A DNA stretch of 64,000 nt from an uncultured Candidatus Saccharibacteria bacterium (lineage in GTDB: Bacteria > Patescibacteriota > Minisyncoccia > Phycocordibacterales > UBA9973): NCBI GenBank assembly GCA_964450735.1, contig CAYVDC010000005.1, positions 22,628-86,627 on the forward strand. Reading direction: 5' to 3'. The notes under the pieces are model-generated. The model saw only the letters and a program-made list of their open reading frames with translations. It made no database searches and had not been told where the DNA came from. How positions within the stretch are numbered: position 1 is the stretch's first letter; each line of letters begins with the position of its first letter. Positions 952 through 64,000 of the stretch are shown here, piece after piece. Position numbers and translations under genes: made by a program.

Positions 952-977
952 TTTACCAGCATAAACCCAAATCTCTG

Positions 978-1099
978 CCACCTATGGCGATGAGATGCTC
1001 ATGGCGCGTCGGCGCACTTTTGAGCGGAGCACAAAGGTGCCCGATCAAAAGTGCGCCGTAAGCGTTCTCCCAGAACTTCATCCCATTTCACCACCTAGG
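978..1099 (+). repeat. Copy 1 of a conserved structured intergenic element of about 95 nt (long imperfect hairpin)
   Basis: About 90% identical to 5375-5471 and to the reverse complement of 26448-26545; 14-bp stem CGGCGCACTTTTGA/TCAAAAGTGCGCCG around an inner stem-loop. Confidence 0.6.
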
Positions 1100-5205: not shown

Positions 5206-5225
5206 TGTGGTTATTTGGAATTATG

Positions 5226-5471
5226 TTCTGGGAGAGCGCACCAGCAGTAGTTTCCTGACTTGCTCACGCTGCGTCAGGAGAACTACTGCTTCGCGCCCTG
5301 TGCATCTCATCACCATACTCATTGGCAATCACTACCTTTACGGTAAAAACATCTAAGTCACTTGCCACCTATGGCACAGAGATGTTCATGGCGCGTCGGT
5401 GCACTTTTGAGCGGAGCACGGATGTGCCCGATCAAAAGTGCACCGTAAGCGCTCTCCGAGGACTCAAATCC
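5226..5471 (+). repeat. Copy 2 of the intergenic structured element, composite: 17-bp hairpin, linker module, then 95-nt core
   Basis: GCAGTAGTTTCCTGAC/GTCAGGAGAACTACTGC hairpin; module cgccctgtgcatctcatcacc...ttacggtaaaaa shared with 26521-26580; core 5375-5471 matches copy 1. Confidence 0.6.
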
Positions 5472-5523
5472 CAATATTAATCTATTTTTGTATTCAAACG
5501 ACCACATGATACAATAGCACTCT

Positions 5524-7256: not shown

Positions 7257-7263
7257 ATTGGTG

Positions 7264-7335
7264 TGATCCCACGGAGAGTCGAACTCCGGTTAACGGATTG
7301 AAAACCCGCTGTCCTAACCACTAGACGATGGGACC
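7264..7335 (-). tRNA. tRNA-Glu (anticodon UUC), no encoded CCA
   Basis: Reverse-strand cloverleaf GGTCCCA/TGGGATC acceptor stem, anticodon loop TTTTCAA; near-identical to 37770-37844. Confidence 0.85.
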
Positions 7336-14192: not shown

Positions 14193-15440
14193 TCAATACA
14201 CTTCCCCCATATACGGCAGCGGCAGGTTCCAAATATACGCATCGCGGCTTGTCTGTTCATCGCGCTCAACTTTTCTCCATGATACTGAGCCTAAACTTGC
14301 AGCCAGGTTGATTGCACCCGTCCCAAACCGCGCACGGATCTGGTCCACGGCGTGCAGTATTTCATTTTTCTCCAAAACTTTTTCCTGCGAGCCGAACAGA
14401 TCAAACTGAAGGTCTTTATTTTCCCGGAGCTCCATGACAGTAATTCCCGTTGCGCGATACATCATTCCCCGTTCATGCAGGCCCGTAATTTCTTTTTCGA
14501 GATAGGCCAGCATGTCACTCGGATTGTTCGTATGTTTTGGAAATCGCGTCCATGCAGACGTATAGCCTCTCAAACCATGTTTCCAGAATATCGAAGCTGC
14601 GCCGGCATACTGTCCGCTTTCTCGCAATCGCATACAGATGATTTCTATATTTCGGGAAAGTTCGGAACGCATGAAAGCAATATCGCTCGTCGCGTGGCTG
14701 AACGTGCGCACGGCCTGAAACGATTTCTGGACTTGATGCGATCCACCAACACGCACCGGCATGACGCTTCGGCAATTCAATTCATGCCACATTTCTTTGA
14801 TTGGCATGGCAAATTTTTTGATGTCAAAATCATTCATTCGTGCGAAGTCATATGCATACTGCCAGCCGCGATTGCGGAATTGCTCGCCAAGCCGCCAGCC
14901 AATGCCCCAGATATTTCCAATTGGAATTTTCTTGAGCGTTTCAATCACTTGTTCATCAAGCAAGACAGTACAGCCATCAGGCTTCTGTAATTTAGAGGCA
15001 ACTTTTGCCAGCACTTTTGTACTTGCTAATCCAAATGAAAACGTAATACCAAGCTCTCGCTGAACGGTAGTTTTGATACTGCGAAGCATTGCTTCCCACG
15101 AACCGTATTTCTTCATGTCTTCCTCTGAAAATTCTGCAAAGCATTCATCGATACTGTAGTGCTCGACTCGAGAGGTAAAACGCTTCATGACACTGTACAA
15201 TTTTTCCGAGTACATGTGATAGAGCTCAAAATGCGCATTCAGGATCGTGACCTGCGGAAACTCCCGCTTTATTTTAAAAATCGGCATGGCGCGATGAATA
15301 CCCAACGCTTTCGCTTCGTATGTCATGGCGCAAGCGATACCGCGGTCGCCTCCGACAACGACCGGTTTGCCTTTTAAGTTCGGGAATCTGGCCACCTCGC
15401 AGGCAGCAAAGAATCCGTCTCCATCTACATGCAAGATCAT
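14193..15440 (-). CDS. Y-family translesion DNA polymerase (DinB/UmuC-like)
   Basis: N-terminal ILHVDGDGFFAACE with catalytic Asp pair, SIDECF acidic motif; 4-nt overlap with upstream lexA. Confidence 0.85.
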   Translation of the reverse strand: MILHVDGDGFFAACEVARFPNLKGKPVVVGGDRGIACAMTYEAKALGIHRAMPIFKIKREFPQVTILNAHFELYHMYSEKLYSVMKRFTSRVEHYSIDECFAEFSEEDMKKYGSWEAMLRSIKTTVQRELGITFSFGLASTKVLAKVASKLQKPDGCTVLLDEQVIETLKKIPIGNIWGIGWRLGEQFRNRGWQYAYDFARMNDFDIKKFAMPIKEMWHELNCRSVMPVRVGGSHQVQKSFQAVRTFSHATSDIAFMRSELSRNIEIICMRLRESGQYAGAASIFWKHGLRGYTSAWTRFPKHTNNPSDMLAYLEKEITGLHERGMMYRATGITVMELRENKDLQFDLFGSQEKVLEKNEILHAVDQIRARFGTGAINLAASLGSVSWRKVERDEQTSRDAYIWNLPLPYMGEVY

Positions 15441-15442
15441 GA

Positions 15443-16024
15443 CTAATATTTACGGACTACTGCTTTGACCACGGCGGCAATACGCAGGCCTTCTTTGGGG
15501 TATATCGCCTTGTAGCGCTTGTTTGCAGGCTCAAGATGAGAAACACCACGTTCTGTGCGCAAATACTTCATGGTCCACATTCCATCGACTTCCGCGATCA
15601 CAATCTCACCAGGTTTGGCAGTTTCAGTACGTTCAACAATAACCAAATCGCCTTCTTTGATACCGGCATCATCCATCGAGTCGCCTTTTACTTTGAGCAT
15701 GAAGCTAGCGTCGCGATTGTCTATCAAAAAGTCATCGAGCGTTACCGTATCAAGCAAGTTTTCTTCGCCGGGAGTTGGAAAACCGGCCTCAACCAAGCCA
15801 AGGACTTTCAATGGGCCTTTCTGGAACATAATTTCATTTGGAATCATGCGGCCGCTTTTATCTTTGGAAAGAACTCCCATTGAGCAGAGATGCGAAATGA
15901 TGCGATGGGCAGAATCCTTGGAACGAAGCCCAAAAATGCGCGCGGCTTCTGAGTATGACGGCATGCGGCGCTGGCTTTTGTAAAAATCGGCCAATTTTTT
16001 GATGTAGGAAGCTTCGTTATGCAT
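15443..16024 (-). CDS. lexA: LexA repressor (S24 peptidase with N-terminal winged HTH)
   Basis: wHTH SYSEAARIFGL..AHRIISHL; VEAGFP Ala-Gly cleavage site; GDSM serine and downstream Lys of the S24 dyad. Confidence 0.9.
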   Translation of the reverse strand: MHNEASYIKKLADFYKSQRRMPSYSEAARIFGLRSKDSAHRIISHLCSMGVLSKDKSGRMIPNEIMFQKGPLKVLGLVEAGFPTPGEENLLDTVTLDDFLIDNRDASFMLKVKGDSMDDAGIKEGDLVIVERTETAKPGEIVIAEVDGMWTMKYLRTERGVSHLEPANKRYKAIYPKEGLRIAAVVKAVVRKY

Positions 16025-25891: not shown

Positions 25892-26392
25892 ATGACTAAA
25901 AAAAGATCTTTTTTCGAGCGTCTCACTGGCAGCGTCAATCTTGAAGATGAATTCGAAGAAGAAGAAAATCCTGAATTCGAACCGATCGAAAAGAAACCTG
26001 CGCACAGCATCAAGTCCATCACCAGAGAAGAAAAAGACGAGTGGATGGAAGCTGAGGCAGAAGAGGGCCAGCTCACCGTTGATGTATATCAGAACAATAC
26101 TGATCTGTATGTAGAAACAATGGTTGCCGGCGTTCGCCCTGAAGACCTCCACATCAGCATCACTCGAGATATGATCACTATCCGCGGCAAGCGCGAACAG
26201 GCTCGCAAGGTAAACGATGACGACTTCTTTACTCGCGAACTCTACTGGGGTTCATTCTCTCGAACAATCTCACTTCCTGCTGAAGTAGAAGCCGAAGACG
26301 CTGAGGCAATTGAAAAGCACGGCCTTCTCGTCATCCGACTTCCAAAGATCAACAAAGACAAACAAACAAATCTCAAAGTAAAATCAGTCTAA
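25892..26392 (+). CDS. Small heat-shock protein, Hsp20/alpha-crystallin family
   Basis: Alpha-crystallin domain GQLTVDVY...LYVETMVAGVRPEDLHISI...YWGSFSRTISLP...LLVIRLPK. Confidence 0.85.
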   Translation: MTKKRSFFERLTGSVNLEDEFEEEENPEFEPIEKKPAHSIKSITREEKDEWMEAEAEEGQLTVDVYQNNTDLYVETMVAGVRPEDLHISITRDMITIRGKREQARKVNDDDFFTRELYWGSFSRTISLPAEVEAEDAEAIEKHGLLVIRLPKINKDKQTNLKVKSV

Positions 26393-26399
26393 ACAATAC

Positions 26400-26436
26400 A
26401 AAAGAGCGGCGCCTTCGGCGCCGCTCTTTTGTATTT
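26400..26436 (+). terminator. Rho-independent terminator after hsp20
   Basis: AAGAGCGGCGCC-ttcg-GGCGCCGCTCTT followed by a T-run. Confidence 0.75.
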
Positions 26437-26445
26437 AGATCGTTT

Positions 26446-26745
26446 ATGGATTTGAGTCCTCGGAGAGCGCTTACGGTGCACTTTTGATCGGGCACCTTTG
26501 TGCTCCGCTCAAAAGTGCACCGACGCGCCCTGAGCATCTCATCGCCTTACTCATTTGCAATCGAAACTTTTACGGTAAAAATTTCGATTGCAATACTCTG
26601 GGAAAGAAGATGCCAGGAGCACGGAGCCGAGTATGCCTGAAAGGGGCTTTCGGAGCGCGACCCGGCGCGAGAACGAGCCAAAAACTCAGCAGAGTTTTAT
26701 GGCGTCCCCTTTCAGGCATACTCGGCGTAGTGCCCTCCGAGAACC
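26446..26745 (-). repeat. Copy 3 of the intergenic structured element (core inverted), plus linker module and a large hairpin with 21-bp perfect arms
   Basis: Reverse complement of 26448-26545 matches the core of copies 1 and 2; module 26521-26580 matches 5291-5352; arms GCCGAGTATGCCTGAAAGGGG (26626-26646) and its complement (26706-26726). Confidence 0.6.
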
Positions 26746-26770
26746 CTAATCCAAACGACCTATGAGATCA

Positions 26771-28024
26771 TTAGTATCCCATTGCTTTCTGAATTCGCTC
26801 CAAAGCAACGATGAACGCGGCGCGGCGGAGGTCAGTTTTGAGATCGGTCGCTTTTGTGTAGATGACAGTGGACTGCTCGTCGAGGATTTTTTGGAGTTTT
26901 GCGTTTACGTCAGCTTCTGACCATCGCTCGCCTTTGAGATTCTGCTCCCATTCAAATGTAGAAACCGTCACGCCACCAGAGTTAGCCAAGATATCTGGCA
27001 CCACAGGAATTCCCATTGAAAGAAGAATTTCATCTGCTTCCGGAGTAAGCGGTCCATTTGCAAGCTCGAGAATAAGCTTTGCTTTTACATTAGCAGCATT
27101 TGCATCAGTGATCTGGTTTTCAAGAGCGGCTGGAATCAAAACATCACATGAAAGCTCAAGAAGTTCTGCATTGGTAATTGTTCGTGATCCTGGGAAGCCT
27201 TCAAGCTTGCCGTTTTCTTTCTTGTAGGCAGCAAGTGCTGCAATATCCAAACCGTCTTCTTTGATGATCGCATGCTTTGAGTCAGACGTTGCAATAACCT
27301 TGTGTCCGTGTGCAGTAAAGATTTCTGCAGCATGCCCTCCAACGTTTCCAAATCCTTGGATGACTACTGTTGAAGATTCTGGAAGATTGTAATGCTTTCG
27401 CAAAACATCAAAGACGTAAAATCCTCCGAGGCCTGTTGCCGCTCCGCGTCCTTCTGATCCGCCTTTGTCGAGCGGCTTGCCGGTAAATGTAGCACCAGTT
27501 GTATCTCCTGAGATCTTTGCGAATTCGTCAGTCATCCATGCCATGATTTCTGGTGTTGTGTTTACGTCTGGAGCTGGAACGTCTTTCTTTGGACCGAGGA
27601 TATCTGCCATACCGCGGACCCATCCACGTGACAATTTCTCAAGTTCAGATTTTGAGAGCTTCTTTGGATCTACGGTGATTCCTCCTTTTCCTCCTCCCAT
27701 AGGAATATCCACTACAGCGCATTTCAAAGCCATCCAAAACGCCAAAGCGCGGACTTCGTTGATATCGGTATCCTGGTGATAGCGAATTCCGCCTTTATAT
27801 GGACCTCGGGCATTGTTATGTTCCACTCTGTAGCCCTCATAAACGGCCGTAGAACCGTCATCCATGACAACTGGGATACTTATCATGACTTCGCGTTCTG
27901 GACGTGAAATTCGGCTCATAAAGGCCTCTGGGAAGTTTCCTAATGAGGCTGCGCGCTTCAATTGCTCAAGCGCATTTTCAAATGGATTGTGTTGCATATG
28001 GGACAAGTATACTCCTCTCACCAA
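26771..28024 (-). CDS. gdhA: Glutamate dehydrogenase (Glu/Leu/Phe/Val dehydrogenase family)
   Basis: PMGGGKGG catalytic glycine-rich motif; GFGNVG NAD(P) Rossmann motif. Confidence 0.9.
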   Translation of the reverse strand: MVRGVYLSHMQHNPFENALEQLKRAASLGNFPEAFMSRISRPEREVMISIPVVMDDGSTAVYEGYRVEHNNARGPYKGGIRYHQDTDINEVRALAFWMALKCAVVDIPMGGGKGGITVDPKKLSKSELEKLSRGWVRGMADILGPKKDVPAPDVNTTPEIMAWMTDEFAKISGDTTGATFTGKPLDKGGSEGRGAATGLGGFYVFDVLRKHYNLPESSTVVIQGFGNVGGHAAEIFTAHGHKVIATSDSKHAIIKEDGLDIAALAAYKKENGKLEGFPGSRTITNAELLELSCDVLIPAALENQITDANAANVKAKLILELANGPLTPEADEILLSMGIPVVPDILANSGGVTVSTFEWEQNLKGERWSEADVNAKLQKILDEQSTVIYTKATDLKTDLRRAAFIVALERIQKAMGY

Positions 28025-32345: not shown

Positions 32346-32771
32346 TTGACTATTAGCTTAAAATATAGTATAATACCGACAACTAAAACAAATTCGATGA
32401 AAACTAAATCCCTACTTATTGCTGGAGTCGCACTGCTGACCATTCATCCGTACGACAAAAAAGTTGCACCAACAACTACGTCAGAATTGATTACATTTGT
32501 ATCACCTGAAGACAGAACACCAGGACAGCTTGCCTATGCCGTGATTACCTACTTGTGGGAAAAAAGCAAAATCTCTACTGAGGTGCTGCAGAACCACATT
32601 AACAGCTTGAGTTTAGATACTTCCGAAATTAAGATTACGGAACTAAAAGTATTCGATACTGACTACAAGGAAATCAAGAACGCTGCCGACAACATTTTGG
32701 ATGTATTCAATACATCGATTATGGACAAAAAACAAATTAAAGAACTCAAACCCAAAAAAGCAACGGCATGA
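32346..32771 (+). CDS. Hypothetical protein (possible secreted; alternative start at 32397)
   Basis: MKTKSLLIAGVALL signal-like segment; no motif. Confidence 0.35.
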   Translation: MTISLKYSIIPTTKTNSMKTKSLLIAGVALLTIHPYDKKVAPTTTSELITFVSPEDRTPGQLAYAVITYLWEKSKISTEVLQNHINSLSLDTSEIKITELKVFDTDYKEIKNAADNILDVFNTSIMDKKQIKELKPKKATA

Positions 32772-33966: not shown

Positions 33967-34333
33967 AATTAAATTACGACCTAAAACAAATTTTATGAAA
34001 ACGAAACAAATCCTTATCGCCTTATTCTGGATTACACTGTATACCGGATATACCTATTTATTTTGGACACACTTTGCTCCTTCCTTGCAGAACGATCCTC
34101 GGAACGAGACTCGCGACCCGGGCTTCTTTGCTTCTTCCTTTTTTATGATTTGGCTCGGTCCTATATTGGCCGGGACAATAAACAAGACTCACCCAAGAAT
34201 AACACTGGGGATACTGTGGTTTTCTTCTCTACTATCTCCTTTTTGGTATCTTGCAATAGGCCTCATCTGGCTCTGCATACAAGGAGCCAAGAAAGTAGTT
34301 ATCTTTTTCAGAACCGTCAACTGGGCAATTTAA
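33944..34333 (+). CDS. Hypothetical membrane protein
   Basis: Three TM helices; 129 aa. Confidence 0.35.
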   Translation: MNQLNLNKIKLRPKTNFMKTKQILIALFWITLYTGYTYLFWTHFAPSLQNDPRNETRDPGFFASSFFMIWLGPILAGTINKTHPRITLGILWFSSLLSPFWYLAIGLIWLCIQGAKKVVIFFRTVNWAI

Positions 34334-34438: not shown

Positions 34439-37042
34439 TTATTTCCGCAATACTTTCTTGAGATACTTTCCCGTATGCGACTTTGGATTGTTCGCCACTT
34501 CTTCTGGCGTTCCAACTGCTACGATCTTTCCACCGCCGACGCCGCCCTCTGGGCCAATGTCGATGAGATAGTCAGAGCATTTGATGATATCCATGTTGTG
34601 CTCAATGAGGACGACAGTATTCCCTTTCGTAACAAGCAATTGTAATACTTCGAGCAGTTTCGCCACATCGTCGTAGTGAAGTCCGACAGTAGGTTCATCC
34701 AACAAGTAAATTGTTTTCTCAACATGTGGACGATAGAGTTCAGAGCTGATCTTCACGCGCTGCGCTTCTCCACCGGAGAGTGTTGTTGCGCTCTGGCCAA
34801 GCTTCACATATGACAATCCTACTTCTCCAAGCGTCTTGATGCGGTCATGGATAGCAGGAACATCTTCGAAAAATGTCAGAGCTTCCTCAACAGTCATTTC
34901 AAGAATGTCGTGAATATTTTTCTTTTTGTATTTAACAGCCAATGTTTCCTTGTCGAATCGTTTTCCTCCGCAGATATCACAGGTTACATACACAGTCGGG
35001 AGGAAGTGCATTTCAACAGCAATCTCGCCGTTTCCTTCGCAGGCCTCGCAGCGTCCGCCTTTGACGTTAAATGAAAATCGGTTCGACTTCCATCCGCGCA
35101 AGCGAGCTTCTTCGGTTGCAGCAAACATGTCGCGGATATGAGTCCATGCTCCAGTATAGGTAGCAATGTTTGAACGCGGTGTTCGGCCAATCGGAGACTG
35201 GTCGATCAAAATTGCGCGAGACACATACTCTGCGCCAGTAAATGAAGCTACATTGTAGCGATTGTTTGAACGATAGCGTCGGTCAAGCTTTGCAGCCAAG
35301 TTCTTGTGCAAGATCTCGTACATAAACGATGACTTTCCTGAACCAGAAACACCGGTGATAGTGATCATGCGTCCAAGCGGAACTTCAACATTCATATCTT
35401 TGATATTGAATACATTTCCGTTGACGATCTTGATCGAGCCTTTGTCTTTGTTTCGACGCTCGTCTGGTACTGGGATCTTGATCTCTTCGCGAAGGTATCC
35501 GAGCGTTCGTGAACCGCTGTCGTTTTTCTTGGCTGCGATGAGATCATCCAAATATCCTGAGACAATCACCTGTCCTCCGTGAACACCCGCTTTTGGTCCG
35601 ATATCAACGATATAGTCTGAAGCATAAATAGTATCTTCGTCGTGTTCAACAACGAGGATCGTGTTACCAAGATCTCTGAGGTTCAAAAGTGTTTCAATCA
35701 GGCGTTCATTGTCTCGCTGGTGAAGTCCAATCGTCGGTTCATCGAGCACATACAAAGCTCCCACTAGTCGTGAACCGAGCTGTGAAGCGAGACGAATGCG
35801 CTGCGCTTCTCCACCTGAGAGCGTATTAGCGCGGCGATCAAGGGTGAGATAATCTAGTCCCACATCGAGCATAAACTGCAAACGGGCTTCGATTTCTCGA
35901 ACGACGGGAACTGAGATTTCTTTGTCTTTGGGTGAAAGTTTCAATCCTTGCGTAAATGTTTGTGCGTCAAAAATTGACTGTGAAGCAAACTTCACGATAT
36001 TGATGCGAGTTTTTGGATTGTCACCAATGAAAACGTTCAAGGCTTCTTTGCGAAGACGTGCGCCTCCGCAGTCATCACATGGCTCATCGCCAAAGAAATG
36101 CTTGGTTCCAAGACCATTACAGGTAGGACATGCGCCGTATGGTGAGTTAAATGAGAACAATCGTGGTTCGATTTCTGGGAATGAGAATCCATCGTTTGGA
36201 CATGCGAACTTTGCAGAGAGTAAAAACTCTTCCTGGCCATCAAACTGCACGATCACCAAGCCGTCAGCTTCTAGGAGTGCTCGCTCAACTGCTTCTGAGA
36301 GTCGCAATCGGCTGGCATCTTTGTCGGACTTGAATTCATGCACGCCGAACTCATCCACCAATACTTCGATATTGTGAGCTTTTGTTTTTGAGAGAACGAT
36401 CTGTTCGCGCAAATTCTTCATCGTTCCATCAAGTCGGATGTGTGAAAATCCTTTGCCGAGCAAATCATAGAGCATCTGGTAGTGCTCGCCTTTTCGTCCA
36501 CGAACAAGCGGTGCAAAAATGTGTACCTTTGCTGTATCCCATTCAACACCCATGACTGACTTTTTCTTTGAACCGTCTTTCATGTATGTCTGCATCTTTT
36601 CCAATACAAAGTTCACAATTTCTTCATTTGAAAGTTTCTTGATCTCTGTTCCGCATTCAGGACAGATTGGTTTACCAACACGCGCGTAAAACACGCGGAG
36701 GTAGTCGTATATCTCCGTAATAGTAGCAACTGTTGAACGCGGGTTATTTGAGCGAGATTTTTGGTCGATTGAAATAGCTGGCGACAAACCAGTAATCTCG
36801 TCAACATCAGGCTTTGGCATTTGATTGAGGAACTGTCGTGCATATGCAGAAAGTGACTCAACATAGCGTCGCTGGCCTTCGGCGAAAATAGTATCAAAAG
36901 CAAGCGATGACTTTCCTGATCCTGACATACCTGTAATAACCACCATCTTGTTTCGTGGCATTTCTACGTCGATATTTTTCAGGTTATGAGTTCTGGCACC
37001 TTTTACGATGATTGAATCTTGTTGTTTGAGTTCTTTTTTCAT
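34439..37042 (-). CDS. uvrA: Excinuclease ABC subunit A
   Basis: Two ABC ATPase modules ([14 protein letters not shown]; GVSGSGKSS), zinc-finger [22 protein letters not shown] signatures. Confidence 0.95.
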
Positions 37043-37769: not shown

Positions 37770-37844
37770 GGTCCCATCGTCTAGTGGTTAGGACAGCGGG
37801 TTCTCAATCCGTTAACCGGAGTTCGACTCTCCGTGGGATCACCA
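37770..37844 (+). tRNA. tRNA-Glu (anticodon CUC) with encoded CCA
   Basis: Same sequence as the 7264-7335 tRNA except for the anticodon loop TTCTCAA; ends ACCA. Confidence 0.85.
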
Positions 37845-61548: not shown

Positions 61549-61662
61549 CTTTTTAGGATCTTTGGATTTCTCGTAATTCCAACAAATCTGGCAGCGACTG
61601 CCAACATACTCGTGCCCGCGGCTGCAGACTTTTCCTTCAGAATTTTTTTTCTGCTTGCTCAT
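61543..61662 (-). CDS. Candidate 39-aa zinc-ribbon-like small protein, start overlapping the upstream stop (TAATG)
   Basis: MSKQKKNSEGKVCSRGHEYVGSRCQICWNYEKSKDPKKK; C-x3-H-x6-C-x2-C; below the ORF-track length cut-off; found by reading the strand. Confidence 0.3.
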   Translation of the reverse strand: MSKQKKNSEGKVCSRGHEYVGSRCQICWNYEKSKDPKKK

Positions 61663-64000
61663 TAGTGAGAATTTACGAATGATCTGGTAAGCGGTCCGAA
61701 GTACCCAATGGCAGGCGCAATTTTGTTCGCTTTCTGGAATTTAATCAAGGCGGCAGCTGTCTTTGCACCAAAGGTGGTAACCTCGTTACCGGCTGAACCC
61801 ATTCCAGAAGTTGCTATTGGAAAACCATGAGTGTTTAAGTACTTTTGCAATTGTAGTACTTCCTCACTGCCTGAACCAAGCTTCAACGTTTGAGTAAATA
61901 CAAACTTGGCAGCTGATGGCTGTGTATTTAGGGATGTAATAGTAGCAGGCTGTAATGTAGTTAAAGTTCCTACTGACGGTGTCTGACTTGAAACGAATTG
62001 TACGGGAACACCGCCACCGTTCGTTGTATTTGCCTGTGCAGCAATACCAACACATCCAGAGACGACACCTCCATCTATGACTGACCAATTATATACCCCC
62101 ATCAAACGAGCTCGAGACGCTGATGCCAAGCAATACTTGCTTTGTCCTCCGTCAAAAGAAACATTTGATCGGAGATTTTGGCTTGCCCAAGAGCTCAGCA
62201 TGGCATCATAATTTGTCCGTGAAAGCGTAACTCCAGTAAACATATCAACCATATTGGTAACATCAGCGACATCCCACGAGCTCAAATTCTGGTCAAAATC
62301 TGTGGTGAGATAAAACATGCTGTCCATGTTTGTAACATTACTAGTATCCCACGAGCTAATATCCTGATTGAAGTGCGTGTCATACGCAAACATTGCATAC
62401 ATATCTGTTGCAGCACTTACATCCCAACCGCTGATGTCTTGATTGAAACTTGTGCCTTGAAATGCGTTTCCAAAATATGTCACATGGCTGACATCCCAAT
62501 TATCCAGTGGCTGATTAAAAAGCTCAGCACCCATAAACAGTGTCCCCATTCCAATGACGCTTGAAGTATCCCAATTATTGAGTGGCTGGTTGAATGCATT
62601 CGCCTCATAGAACATTCCGCCCATTCCGGTAACATGTGACACATCCCATGAATTGAGCGGCTGGTTGAATGCATTTGTGCTCATAAACATTGAAGACATA
62701 TTCGTCACATTGGCAGTATTCCAGTTGCTTATGTTTTGGTTGAATACGGAAGCTCCCATAAACATGCCATCAAAACTTGTCGCACTTGATACATCCCAGT
62801 TATTGAGCGGCTGGTTGAATGCAGCTGCACCGGTAAACATCGAATCAAATCGAGTAACATGAGAGACATCCCAAGAGTTGAGCGGCTGGTTGAATGCGGC
62901 ATCAGCGTAAAACAAACCAATCATATTAGTCACATTTGAAGTGTCCCACGATGAAATGTCTCCATTGAATGCTGTTCCTTGAAAAACCCCGATCATTGAA
63001 ATGATAGATCCAGTATCCCAACCGCTCAGATCTTCGGTAGTGACTCCGCTGTCTCGAAGCATATATGTCATATCTGTGACGCCGGAAAGGTCGGGAGCAT
63101 CAGTGGCGGTAATTGCAAGATTGGTACATCCAAAAAATGCACCAGCCATATTTTCCCATGCTATCGTGCCCCATTGATCAACTGAGAGTATTTTATTTTT
63201 ATCACCAGCATATGCAAACGTTATCGCTGGAAAAACACCAGAAATTGATACTGTGTATGTACCGGGCGTCACATAGGTATGTGTAATTGCCCCTGTAACA
63301 CCAGTATCTGTATTTGAATCTCCCCAATCAACATTGTAGTTATACGTAAGACCATTTGTTGTTGGAATAGTGATCTGATTGCTGCTGGATACTCCAGGAT
63401 TGTCTGTTTTCCAAGTAGTAATAAATTCTGTTGCAGGAGCATCAAGGTCCGTAATTACAATCTCATCAACATAGTCACGATCAACTGCAGCTCCATATCC
63501 AGCTGTGTATTGAACAAGACCAGATGGGTAGGTCGCATCTGTTGCAGAACCAAGCAGCGTATAGGTAACGCCGTCATCTGAATAGTAAAAACTCAATGAA
63601 GTGCCAATTGCGGTTGCTTTAAACCAGCGAGGCTGTGATTTCGGCAAACTACCACTCCACAGCGGAGTATATGTTCCTGAAGAAACTCGCCAAATATATA
63701 CGTTGCTTGAATCATAGACATGGAATAAATATCCCATTCGCGCACCTGCTGAGTTTACTACGCTCGTATCAATTGCTTGGGCGCGAAGAGTAAATCCACC
63801 GCGACCAAGATTGTTCGAGTAAGCCTGTTTCCATATTACTGATTGATCCGCTGAACCAGCAAAGTTATCAAATAATATTCCGGCAATAACGCCAGTTTGC
63901 GTAACAGCTCGTAATGAATTACCCAATGTTGGTTCATTTTGAACATCAAAAGTTCCTGCAGTTACTGTTGTATTTGCAGGAACTTGGCCGATTGTATCAG
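61662..64000 (-). CDS. Large surface protein with PKD domain, DUF285-type repeats and C-terminal peptidoglycan-binding domain; 5' end lies outside the window
   Basis: Frame open to the window edge; PKD-like VDWGDSNTDTG..PGTYTV; about 12 repeats FNQPLN[NS]WDVS.VT.M; C-terminal PG_binding_1-like LQLQKYLNTHGF... Confidence 0.7.
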   Translation of the reverse strand, partial: DTIGQVPANTTVTAGTFDVQNEPTLGNSLRAVTQTGVIAGILFDNFAGSADQSVIWKQAYSNNLGRGGFTLRAQAIDTSVVNSAGARMGYLFHVYDSSNVYIWRVSSGTYTPLWSGSLPKSQPRWFKATAIGTSLSFYYSDDGVTYTLLGSATDATYPSGLVQYTAGYGAAVDRDYVDEIVITDLDAPATEFITTWKTDNPGVSSSNQITIPTTNGLTYNYNVDWGDSNTDTGVTGAITHTYVTPGTYTVSISGVFPAITFAYAGDKNKILSVDQWGTIAWENMAGAFFGCTNLAITATDAPDLSGVTDMTYMLRDSGVTTEDLSGWDTGSIISMIGVFQGTAFNGDISSWDTSNVTNMIGLFYADAAFNQPLNSWDVSHVTRFDSMFTGAAAFNQPLNNWDVSSATSFDGMFMGASVFNQNISNWNTANVTNMSSMFMSTNAFNQPLNSWDVSHVTGMGGMFYEANAFNQPLNNWDTSSVIGMGTLFMGAELFNQPLDNWDVSHVTYFGNAFQGTSFNQDISGWDVSAATDMYAMFAYDTHFNQDISSWDTSNVTNMDSMFYLTTDFDQNLSSWDVADVTNMVDMFTGVTLSRTNYDAMLSSWASQNLRSNVSFDGGQSKYCLASASRARLMGVYNWSVIDGGVVSGCVGIAAQANTTNGGGVPVQFVSSQTPSVGTLTTLQPATITSLNTQPSAAKFVFTQTLKLGSGSEEVLQLQKYLNTHGFPIATSGMGSAGNEVTTFGAKTAAALIKFQKANKIAPAIGYFGPLTRSFVNSH
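62232..63164 (-). repeat. In-frame tandem repeats of about 66-69 nt (22-23 aa) inside the surface-protein gene
   Basis: Protein-level repeats F[ND]Q.[LI][SN].WD[VT]S.VT.M.[SG]MF repeated about 12 times. Confidence 0.6.

Follow-up and report, generated by a model that had tools for sequence, protein, structure and literature searches.

A probable MITE-like family of hairpin-rich intergenic repeats, seen between hsp20 and gdhA and in two other gene gaps of a Paceibacteria clade

The gap between the convergent genes hsp20 and gdhA in a 64-kb stretch of contig CAYVDC010000005.1 (GCA_964450735.1; positions 22,628 to 86,627, hereafter the window) is filled by a hairpin-rich block of about 300 nt, one of three copies of the same element within the window. 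Further members occupy other gene gaps in related genomes, and the occupancy of orthologous gaps differs genome by genome. The element therefore is or was mobile. We consider it probable that the block belongs to a family resembling miniature inverted-repeat transposable elements (MITEs), namely small, non-coding, GC-enriched mobile repeats in a clade of Paceibacteria (Patescibacteria, also known as the Candidate Phyla Radiation, CPR). It is small and non-coding, is bounded by terminal inverted repeats and is dispersed in several copies that are present in some orthologous sites and absent from others. The original prediction, made from the nucleotide sequence of the window, had located the block between these two genes and suspected a mobile unit; both points hold, since the element stands at three sites in the window and in other gaps of its relatives, with empty sites known for all three gaps.

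The copies are numbered by their order in the window (Table 1). Copy 3, in the hsp20-gdhA gap, reads on the + strand as a C-side end repeat, hairpin C, hairpin B, hairpin D and a far end repeat, and this orientation, with the C-side end repeat and hairpin C at the left, is taken as canonical throughout. The motif of the C-side end repeat also stands at the ends of copies 1 and 2 and has no match elsewhere in the window. In full members, the terminal inverted repeats measure ~25-30 nt and the far-end consensus is near GGTTRTTTGGAATnnnGTTCTSGGAGAGCGC; the far-end consensus ATTCCARAYAACC is common to copy 2 and to three members in relatives (L036, L034 and L043, introduced below), and the family ends read GGTTRTTTGGAAT...GGAGAGCGC. 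Full members are ~270-320 nt long and half units ~140-150 nt. In layout, a full element amounts to a pair of half units, each of ~150 nt, that meet head to head at the tip of B, and half units are also known alone (copy 1 and L048). The third hairpin varies: copy 3 and L043 have D, L036 and L034 have a shortened D, and copy 2 has hairpin A. The G+C content of the elements is 50-53%, in comparison to 43.3% for the window. Two open reading frames (ORFs) lie across copy 3, at 26484-26765 (+) and 26373-26537 (-), and neither has a Pfam match.

Table 1. Positions of the three copies, their modules and the features flanking copy 3 in the window
Feature	Coordinates	Strand	Remark
Copy 1, half element	952-1093	-	One B arm up to the tip, hairpin C and C-side end repeat
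Copy 2, full element, opposite orientation	5209-5482	-	ftsZ-trxB gap; profile match, fold and end-repeat motif
Copy 2, far repeat	5214-5239		Read on + strand
Copy 2, hairpin A (replaces D)	5243-5290		Read on + strand
Copy 2, hairpin B	5292-5395		Read on + strand
Copy 2, hairpin C	5397-5445		Read on + strand
Copy 2, C-side repeat	5449-5473		Read on + strand
hsp20	25892-26392	+	Convergent with gdhA; left flank of copy 3
Hairpin outside the element, 19 bp, perfect	26395-26435	.	Inverted repeat I3, 100%; directly 3' of hsp20
Copy 3, full element, ~320 nt	26440-26760	+	End-to-end nhmmer match, profile of 6 members
Copy 3, terminal inverted repeat, C-side arm (TGGATTTGAGTCCTCGGAGAGCGCT)	26447-26471	+	Pairs with 26729-26753, 80% over 25 nt
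Copy 3, hairpin C, 18-bp stem	26474-26522	.	Inverted repeat I5, 94%
Copy 3, hairpin B, central quasi-palindrome, tip TTTACGGTAAAAA	26524-26617	.	Inverted repeat I4 near tip, 19 bp, 95%; folds
Copy 3, hairpin D, 28-nt arms	26619-26733	.	21 nt perfect (26626-26646 / 26706-26726)
Copy 3, terminal inverted repeat, far arm	26729-26753	+	Pairs with 26447-26471; element ends at ~26760 (...AATCCAAACGACC)
gdhA	26771-27997	-	Convergent with hsp20; right flank of copy 3

Occupancy of the three gaps was compared across relatives; the Hsp20 and TrxB homologues place the organism of the window in Patescibacteria/Paceibacteria. The hsp20-gdhA gap is filled in the window, in GCA_013558375 (L036), GCA_964654085 (L037), GCA_013565695 (L038) and GCA_031973655 (L034), and in the Logan contigs L033 and L035. 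In these relatives, with 87% identity in Hsp20, the element is diverged and has the same orientation and module order as the window and a shorter D (13-bp stem). A further Logan contig (L032, from SRR12404947), found via the gdhA protein (408-aa start), is identical to the window in the gdhA region and ends inside the D loop; the same organism is present in that sample. The gap is empty, at 75 nt, in GCA_964532495 (L039) and a Logan contig (L040), where Hsp20 identity is 81%. At ftsZ-trxB, copy 2 is itself an insertion missing from the three closest relatives (L041, L042 and L044; TrxB 96-97%), which have an empty 76-nt gap, and L048 (TrxB 89%) holds a half element in the orientation opposite to copy 2. 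The priA-rpsU gap contains the half element copy 1 in the window, a full element in the other, canonical orientation in GCA_964532495 (L043), and nothing in L046, L047 and L048. In GCA_964532495 and in ERR14369865 the member lies at a locus different from that of copy 3, and the six-member profile returned no further copies in ~190 kb of related loci. The original prediction had looked to orthologous hsp20-gdhA gaps for variation in the arrangement and to known elements for a source of the 21-mer described below. The arrangement is kept wherever the gap is occupied, and the 21-mer is indeed part of a repeated element, one undescribed in the libraries searched.

Two further differences between the loci compared are recorded here as observations in their own right. 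At priA-rpsU of GCA_013565695, positions 4036-4180 of L041 hold a different sequence of ~105 nt with its own long hairpin (...GGTATAAAATTTGC / GCAAATTTTCATACC...), which is unmatched by the family profile and could be either a strongly diverged orthologue or a second repeat family. In GCA_964532495, gene content that is otherwise syntenic with the window differs near gdhA by a 2009-aa SpvB/RHS-repeat protein (L039, 13871-19900) and between ftsZ and trxB by an extra 249-aa gene (L043, 9113-9862).

The element folds into a closing stem that carries three hairpins, a plan shared by all five full members. For copy 3 the minimum free energy is -174 kcal/mol (z = -14.9), the other strand folds equally well (z = -14.3), and z-scores against shuffles, calculated for copies 2 and 3 only, lie between -11 and -15. 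The consensus of the five full members retains the closing stem, hairpin C and the base of B, with both partners altered in 16 of 70 pairs. The stem of hairpin C, followed in six members, is also kept, with changes on both sides in 8 of its 15 pairs.

Hairpin D contains the feature that first drew attention to the locus. The 21-mer GCCGAGTATGCCTGAAAGGGG and its exact reverse complement lie 59 nt apart, as originally noted, and in shuffled sequences the chance expectation of such a pair is zero even with three mismatches allowed. Pairing extends beyond the 21-mer to 28 nt at 89% (26619-26646 / 26706-26733), and the 59-nt loop is branched, with two small hairpins inside. The D hairpin of L043, at a different locus in a different genome, repeats this geometry, its 28-nt arms pairing at 89% around a loop of 57 nt. 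Its loop is near-identical to that of the window and its stem is equally perfect, yet the stems differ in sequence (GTACTGCATGTCTGGAAGGGG in L043 versus GCCGAGTATGCCTGAAAGGGG in the window). Of the 44 pairs predicted, 10 differ in both partners; no pair differs in a single partner or is broken. Some of these double changes are in fact symmetric insertions in both arms. Hairpin D is thus a module of the family and the 21-bp perfect arms are simply its stem. The earlier suggestions of a stand-alone protein-binding site or an excision scar are not supported, given that geometry and loop are conserved at another locus. The view that a perfect 21-bp hairpin is no terminator was upheld: with 28-nt arms, a 59-nt loop, no T-run following it and a negative terminator scan at this position, D does not have the form of an intrinsic terminator.

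Paired changes in the stems of C, D and the closing stem, an architecture kept despite sequence turnover, very stable folds and a D loop conserved over a changing stem are what a structured RNA might leave behind. We therefore weighed whether the members are genes for structured non-coding RNAs or cis-acting RNA elements, in which a transcribed four-way junction of ~300 nt had spread by duplication or RNA-linked mobility. At hsp20-gdhA, the strand that would be transcribed by read-through from gdhA does fold 7-11 kcal/mol better than its complement, with more G-U pairs, in the window, L036 and L034. Across the family, however, both strands fold about equally and the better strand differs among members; these differences in energy and G-U content are small and inconsistent, and strand preference was dropped as an indicator of RNA function. 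The long stems are perfect Watson-Crick helices and D shows neither one-sided nor G-U changes, a pattern seen more typically in palindromic DNA. Nor do members keep one orientation towards the neighbouring genes, since it is canonical at priA-rpsU in L043 and opposite in copy 1. The third hairpin may be shortened or replaced (A in place of D), and some elements are halves only. Nothing resembling a promoter or a terminator was found within the element, and no Rfam family matches it. Taken together, a functional RNA is an unlikely explanation.

The same combination of perfect Watson-Crick stems, symmetric length changes and lack of strand preference fits correction of DNA by template switching better than selection on a single strand of RNA. 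When templates are switched between imperfect inverted repeats, the arms become alike and spacers are inverted, as set out in passages of PMC8604942 and PMC8794818. The likeness extends, as far as those passages go, to stems that stay perfect while their sequence drifts, to symmetric changes in both arms (D in the window versus D in L043) and to inversion of a spacer or inner segment as an outcome of the process. In our model, polymerase template switching between the arms would keep the hairpins near-perfect, making the arms alike and allowing the spacer to flip. This is a mutational process and not an element family, and it would account for the upkeep of the hairpins and for the mixed orientation described below, not for spread.

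The mixed orientation concerns two segments that the original prediction had called a 95-nt core and a linker module, with the core on the opposite strand and the linker on the same strand as in copy 2. Both observations were confirmed far beyond chance. The core matches on the opposite strand (26446-26549 versus 983-1086 at 89% and versus 5370-5471 at 91%; 94.6% over 93 nt between copies 3 and 2 in local alignment), and the linker matches on the same strand (26524-26581 versus 5292-5349, 86% over 58 nt). The core consists of hairpin C, which forms its centre, together with the end repeat, and the linker corresponds to the left arm of hairpin B (26524-26581). Both matches include 26524-26549, since B has a palindromic base (CGCGCC...GGCGCG) and arms that are inverted copies of each other. 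The conclusion drawn earlier, that the core had been inverted independently of its neighbour, is not supported. All of copy 3 runs opposite to copies 1 and 2, with its end repeat and hairpin C at the left and not at the right, and the linker, being an arm of the quasi-palindrome B, partly matches in either orientation.

For a comparison of the B arms, hairpin C and the adjoining end repeat served to orient all members. In its left B arm, copy 3 shares 84% identity with copy 2 and only 71-72% with its own orthologues in L034 and L036, while its right arm is 76-77% identical to the orthologous right arms. In L034, hairpin B combines a left arm of the type found in copy 1, copy 2 and L048 (GCCATTAGTGGCAA) with a right arm of the copy-3 type (ATACTCTGGGA). 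On these sequence comparisons, the simplest reading would be that the ancestral element at hsp20-gdhA had an L034-like B, and that in the window lineage the left B arm was replaced by, or corrected towards, the variant also present in copy 2. Such a change may have come about through gene conversion or arm exchange between copies, or through a flip of the inner part of B, either of which would be easy because the arms of B are inverted twins. The apparent inversion of core against linker may accordingly have arisen in two steps, inversion of the complete copy 3 with respect to copies 1 and 2, and acquisition by its left B arm of the variant of copy 2's left arm.

The original prediction also suggested an invertible unit. 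As a DNA switch, this would have a site-specific recombinase act at inverted repeats and flip the core or hairpin B between two states. Every module is bracketed by inverted repeats, the left B arm of copy 3 matches copy 2 directly while hairpin C is reversed, and the same gaps carry opposite orientations in different lineages, all of which would fit such a switch. All seven other assemblies at hsp20-gdhA (L032-L038), however, show the orientation of the window over the part that each covers, no recombinase Pfam domain was found among the scanned window ORFs or the genes called at the orthologous loci, and the element contains no promoter-like signal to be switched. The palindromic symmetry of B together with arm exchange would explain the mixed orientation, and we regard a switch as very improbable.

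The insertion sites share a setting. Of five independent insertions, three lie in a T-rich spacer within ~10-20 nt after an intrinsic terminator: the one at hsp20-gdhA and those at ftsZ-trxB of the window and of L048. The other two, copy 1 and the L043 member at priA-rpsU, stand directly after the priA stop codon, with no terminator seen. At hsp20-gdhA the terminator would be the 19-bp perfect hairpin listed in Table 1, which has an A-run before it and a T-rich stretch after it, with copy 3 just downstream. We read it as a two-way terminator of hsp20, separate from the element; weak Rfam matches there cover only terminator-like parts of unrelated small-RNA families. The proximity to terminators could also be taken to mean that the blocks are regulatory or terminator palindromes that grew in place and never moved, given that template switching can create and extend hairpins, according to passages of PMC8794818. 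Growth in place would have to yield ~100-nt stretches 85-95% identical across loci and genomes, along with shared end repeats and a shared D loop. In close relatives the sites are cleanly empty, and no hairpin of the element is followed by a T-run. This explanation is close to refuted.

If the family is MITE-like, the element would be moved in trans by an enzyme that is encoded elsewhere and recognises its ends. Several observations weigh against this. The window yielded neither an autonomous element nor a transposase with these ends, and none of the 28 larger window ORFs tested has a transposase Pfam domain (nine match nothing in Pfam). The collection comprises only some six independent members. 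Scans of metagenomes with a pattern of the D loop returned nothing and with a far-end pattern only L045, which is the already known L036; a viral pattern scan found nothing; and a stem-only pattern of hairpin C, scanned against a genome collection, returned 31 unrelated terminator-like hairpins, with the CPR matches (L019 and L026) being plain terminators. The direct repeats flanking the elements are T-rich and reach p ~0.03 for copy 2 and ~0.02 for L048, with the other four of six pairs not significant. The same gaps hold opposite orientations in different lineages, which requires either strong site preference or inversion in place. Finally, a conserved single-stranded loop with paired stem changes is also expected of a functional RNA.

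Two candidate lines of support for transposition were set aside. The imperfect 7-13-nt T-rich flank repeats seen by eye (TATTTGT / TATTTTTGT for copy 2, TATTTAGATC / TATGAGATC for copy 3 and TTTTTTGTTTAG / TTTTTTGTTTGTAG for L048) are not claimed as a target-site duplication, the shuffle test being weak. TA dinucleotides flank every member and, being common in such AT-rich spacers, are not diagnostic. ORFs of 151 aa in L039 and L043 were considered as a multi-copy transposase; the three that were translated show no relationship among themselves, and one of them is an over-call that extends from the element into the S21-like gene downstream.

The lack of a clear target-site duplication would suit a hairpin-dependent single-strand DNA element, comparable in kind to REP/REPIN-RAYT systems or to the palindrome-associated derivatives of IS200/IS605, in which an HUH-type enzyme would read the subterminal hairpins and not the terminal inverted repeats. 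The hairpins adjoining the ends (C, and D or A) are the best-conserved structural features, the full element resembles an inverted pair of half units just as REPINs are inverted REPs, and TAG or TAA precedes the C-side end in four of the five independent insertions, so that a short target motif is possible. That flank rests on five events in AT-rich DNA, however, and the units, at ~150 nt, are far above the 20-40 nt of REPs. Long true terminal inverted repeats are present here, which to our knowledge IS200/IS605-type ends lack, and the window ORFs tested contain no Y1/HUH transposase domain. We consider such an element quite unlikely.

Catalogues of known sequences gave no match. No Rfam family reaches its gathering score on the element, tRNAs being the only families to do so anywhere in the window, and at E-values up to 10 the region yields only terminator-like or microRNA-hairpin noise. 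Plasmid and phage collections contain nothing similar. Scans for promoters and terminators inside the elements gave nothing above shuffles, and a promoter or terminator function within them was dropped. In the Patescibacteria/Parcubacteria literature, we found no description of MITE-type or palindromic intergenic repeats, a search that was incomplete and hence gives no proof of novelty. The family looks like a previously undescribed one of an ordinary, well-known kind of mobile element. It is unusual in enclosing three hairpins in a closing stem, in having a third module that can be exchanged and in a build that resembles two half units set in inverse orientation.

Known bacterial MITEs whose terminal inverted repeats are long include the Correia elements of Neisseria (100-155 bp) and the ERIC/IRU elements of enterobacteria. 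Compared by design and not by sequence, the element resembles these in being small, non-coding and intergenic, with terminal inverted repeats of ~25 nt, often near terminators or promoters, in its presence or absence at orthologous sites and in that the whole element can fold into a long hairpin. It is 2-3 times longer than Correia elements and, unlike both groups, has three separate internal hairpins in place of one overall palindrome, one of them exchangeable (D or A); its flanks gave no clear TA or other target duplication, and it is not known to have a parent insertion sequence. BOX elements of Streptococcus pneumoniae are modular boxA-boxB-boxC repeats in direct order with a variable number of boxB units. 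They are similar in being modular, and no relationship in sequence is expected: in both, highly structured intergenic repeats are built of modules that vary in number and identity, and have no known transposase of their own, whereas in the present element two half units are paired in inverse orientation and held by a closing stem. REPINs are inverted doublets of REP sequences mobilised by RAYT transposases. As in REPINs, two related inverted units form a hairpin-shaped mobile unit, solo units exist and terminators are near; in contrast, the units here have their own internal hairpin and no RAYT-like gene was seen in the window.

One further alternative would be the most novel. The element might be a mobile structured nucleic acid in which the conserved four-way junction is itself functional, either a new class of RNA riding with, or guiding, its own mobility or a new, CPR-specific type of single-strand DNA transposon recognised by its hairpins. 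In both cases the core for recognition or catalysis would be formed by the perfectly maintained hairpins C and D with the conserved loop of D. We allow this a small chance because the stems show paired changes, the loop is conserved, no target duplication was seen, no known transposase was found and no catalogue entry matches. A MITE-like family, with hairpins maintained by template switching, remains the reading that we favour.

The genes at the copy 3 site encode PrsW, Hsp20, GdhA, a 204-aa ORF without a Pfam match and a member of the endonuclease/exonuclease/phosphatase family (Exo_endo_phos). Elsewhere in the window, several features unrelated to the element were recorded. Two tRNA-Glu genes, at 7263-7335 (-) and 37770-37842 (+), are 99% identical over 73 nt with one difference, and ARAGORN assigns them the anticodons TTC and CTC; they look like recent duplicates separated by an anticodon change. 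A 754-aa ORF at 61662-63926 (-) contains four DUF285 stretches, a PKD domain and a peptidoglycan-binding domain, and within it, at 62485-62897, tandem or direct repeats with 75-nt spacing and 113-nt units share 64-76% identity. This ORF looks like a repeat-built surface protein. At 14193-16024 (-), a Y-family DNA polymerase gene (IMS domains, 415 aa) lies directly downstream of a Peptidase_S24 gene (LexA/UmuD-like, 193 aa); the two form a damage-tolerance pair of the SOS type, here in a very small genome. At 34439-37042 there is a UvrA-like ORF. A 40-nt direct repeat (32383-32422 and 33981-34020, 78%) takes in the start (ATGAAAAC...), and the sequence upstream of it, of two small ORFs ~1.6 kb apart, which suggests a small paralogous family of short proteins.

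The significance of the family is modest and no major question is altered by it. In practice, the element breaks short-read assemblies, with three Logan contigs ending inside it (L032 in the D loop, L033 in hairpin C and L035 in hairpin B), and gene callers predict spurious ORFs on it, for example one of 55 aa in L036 and one of 151 aa in L043 that extends from the element into the S21-like gene downstream. The stems offer a clean example from nature of long hairpins that stay perfect despite sequence drift, which bears on the reading of 'compensatory change' as a sign of RNA function. For the organisms themselves, a hairpin-rich repeat in three gaps within 64 kb means that even the small, streamlined genomes of Patescibacteria carry and tolerate selfish DNA.

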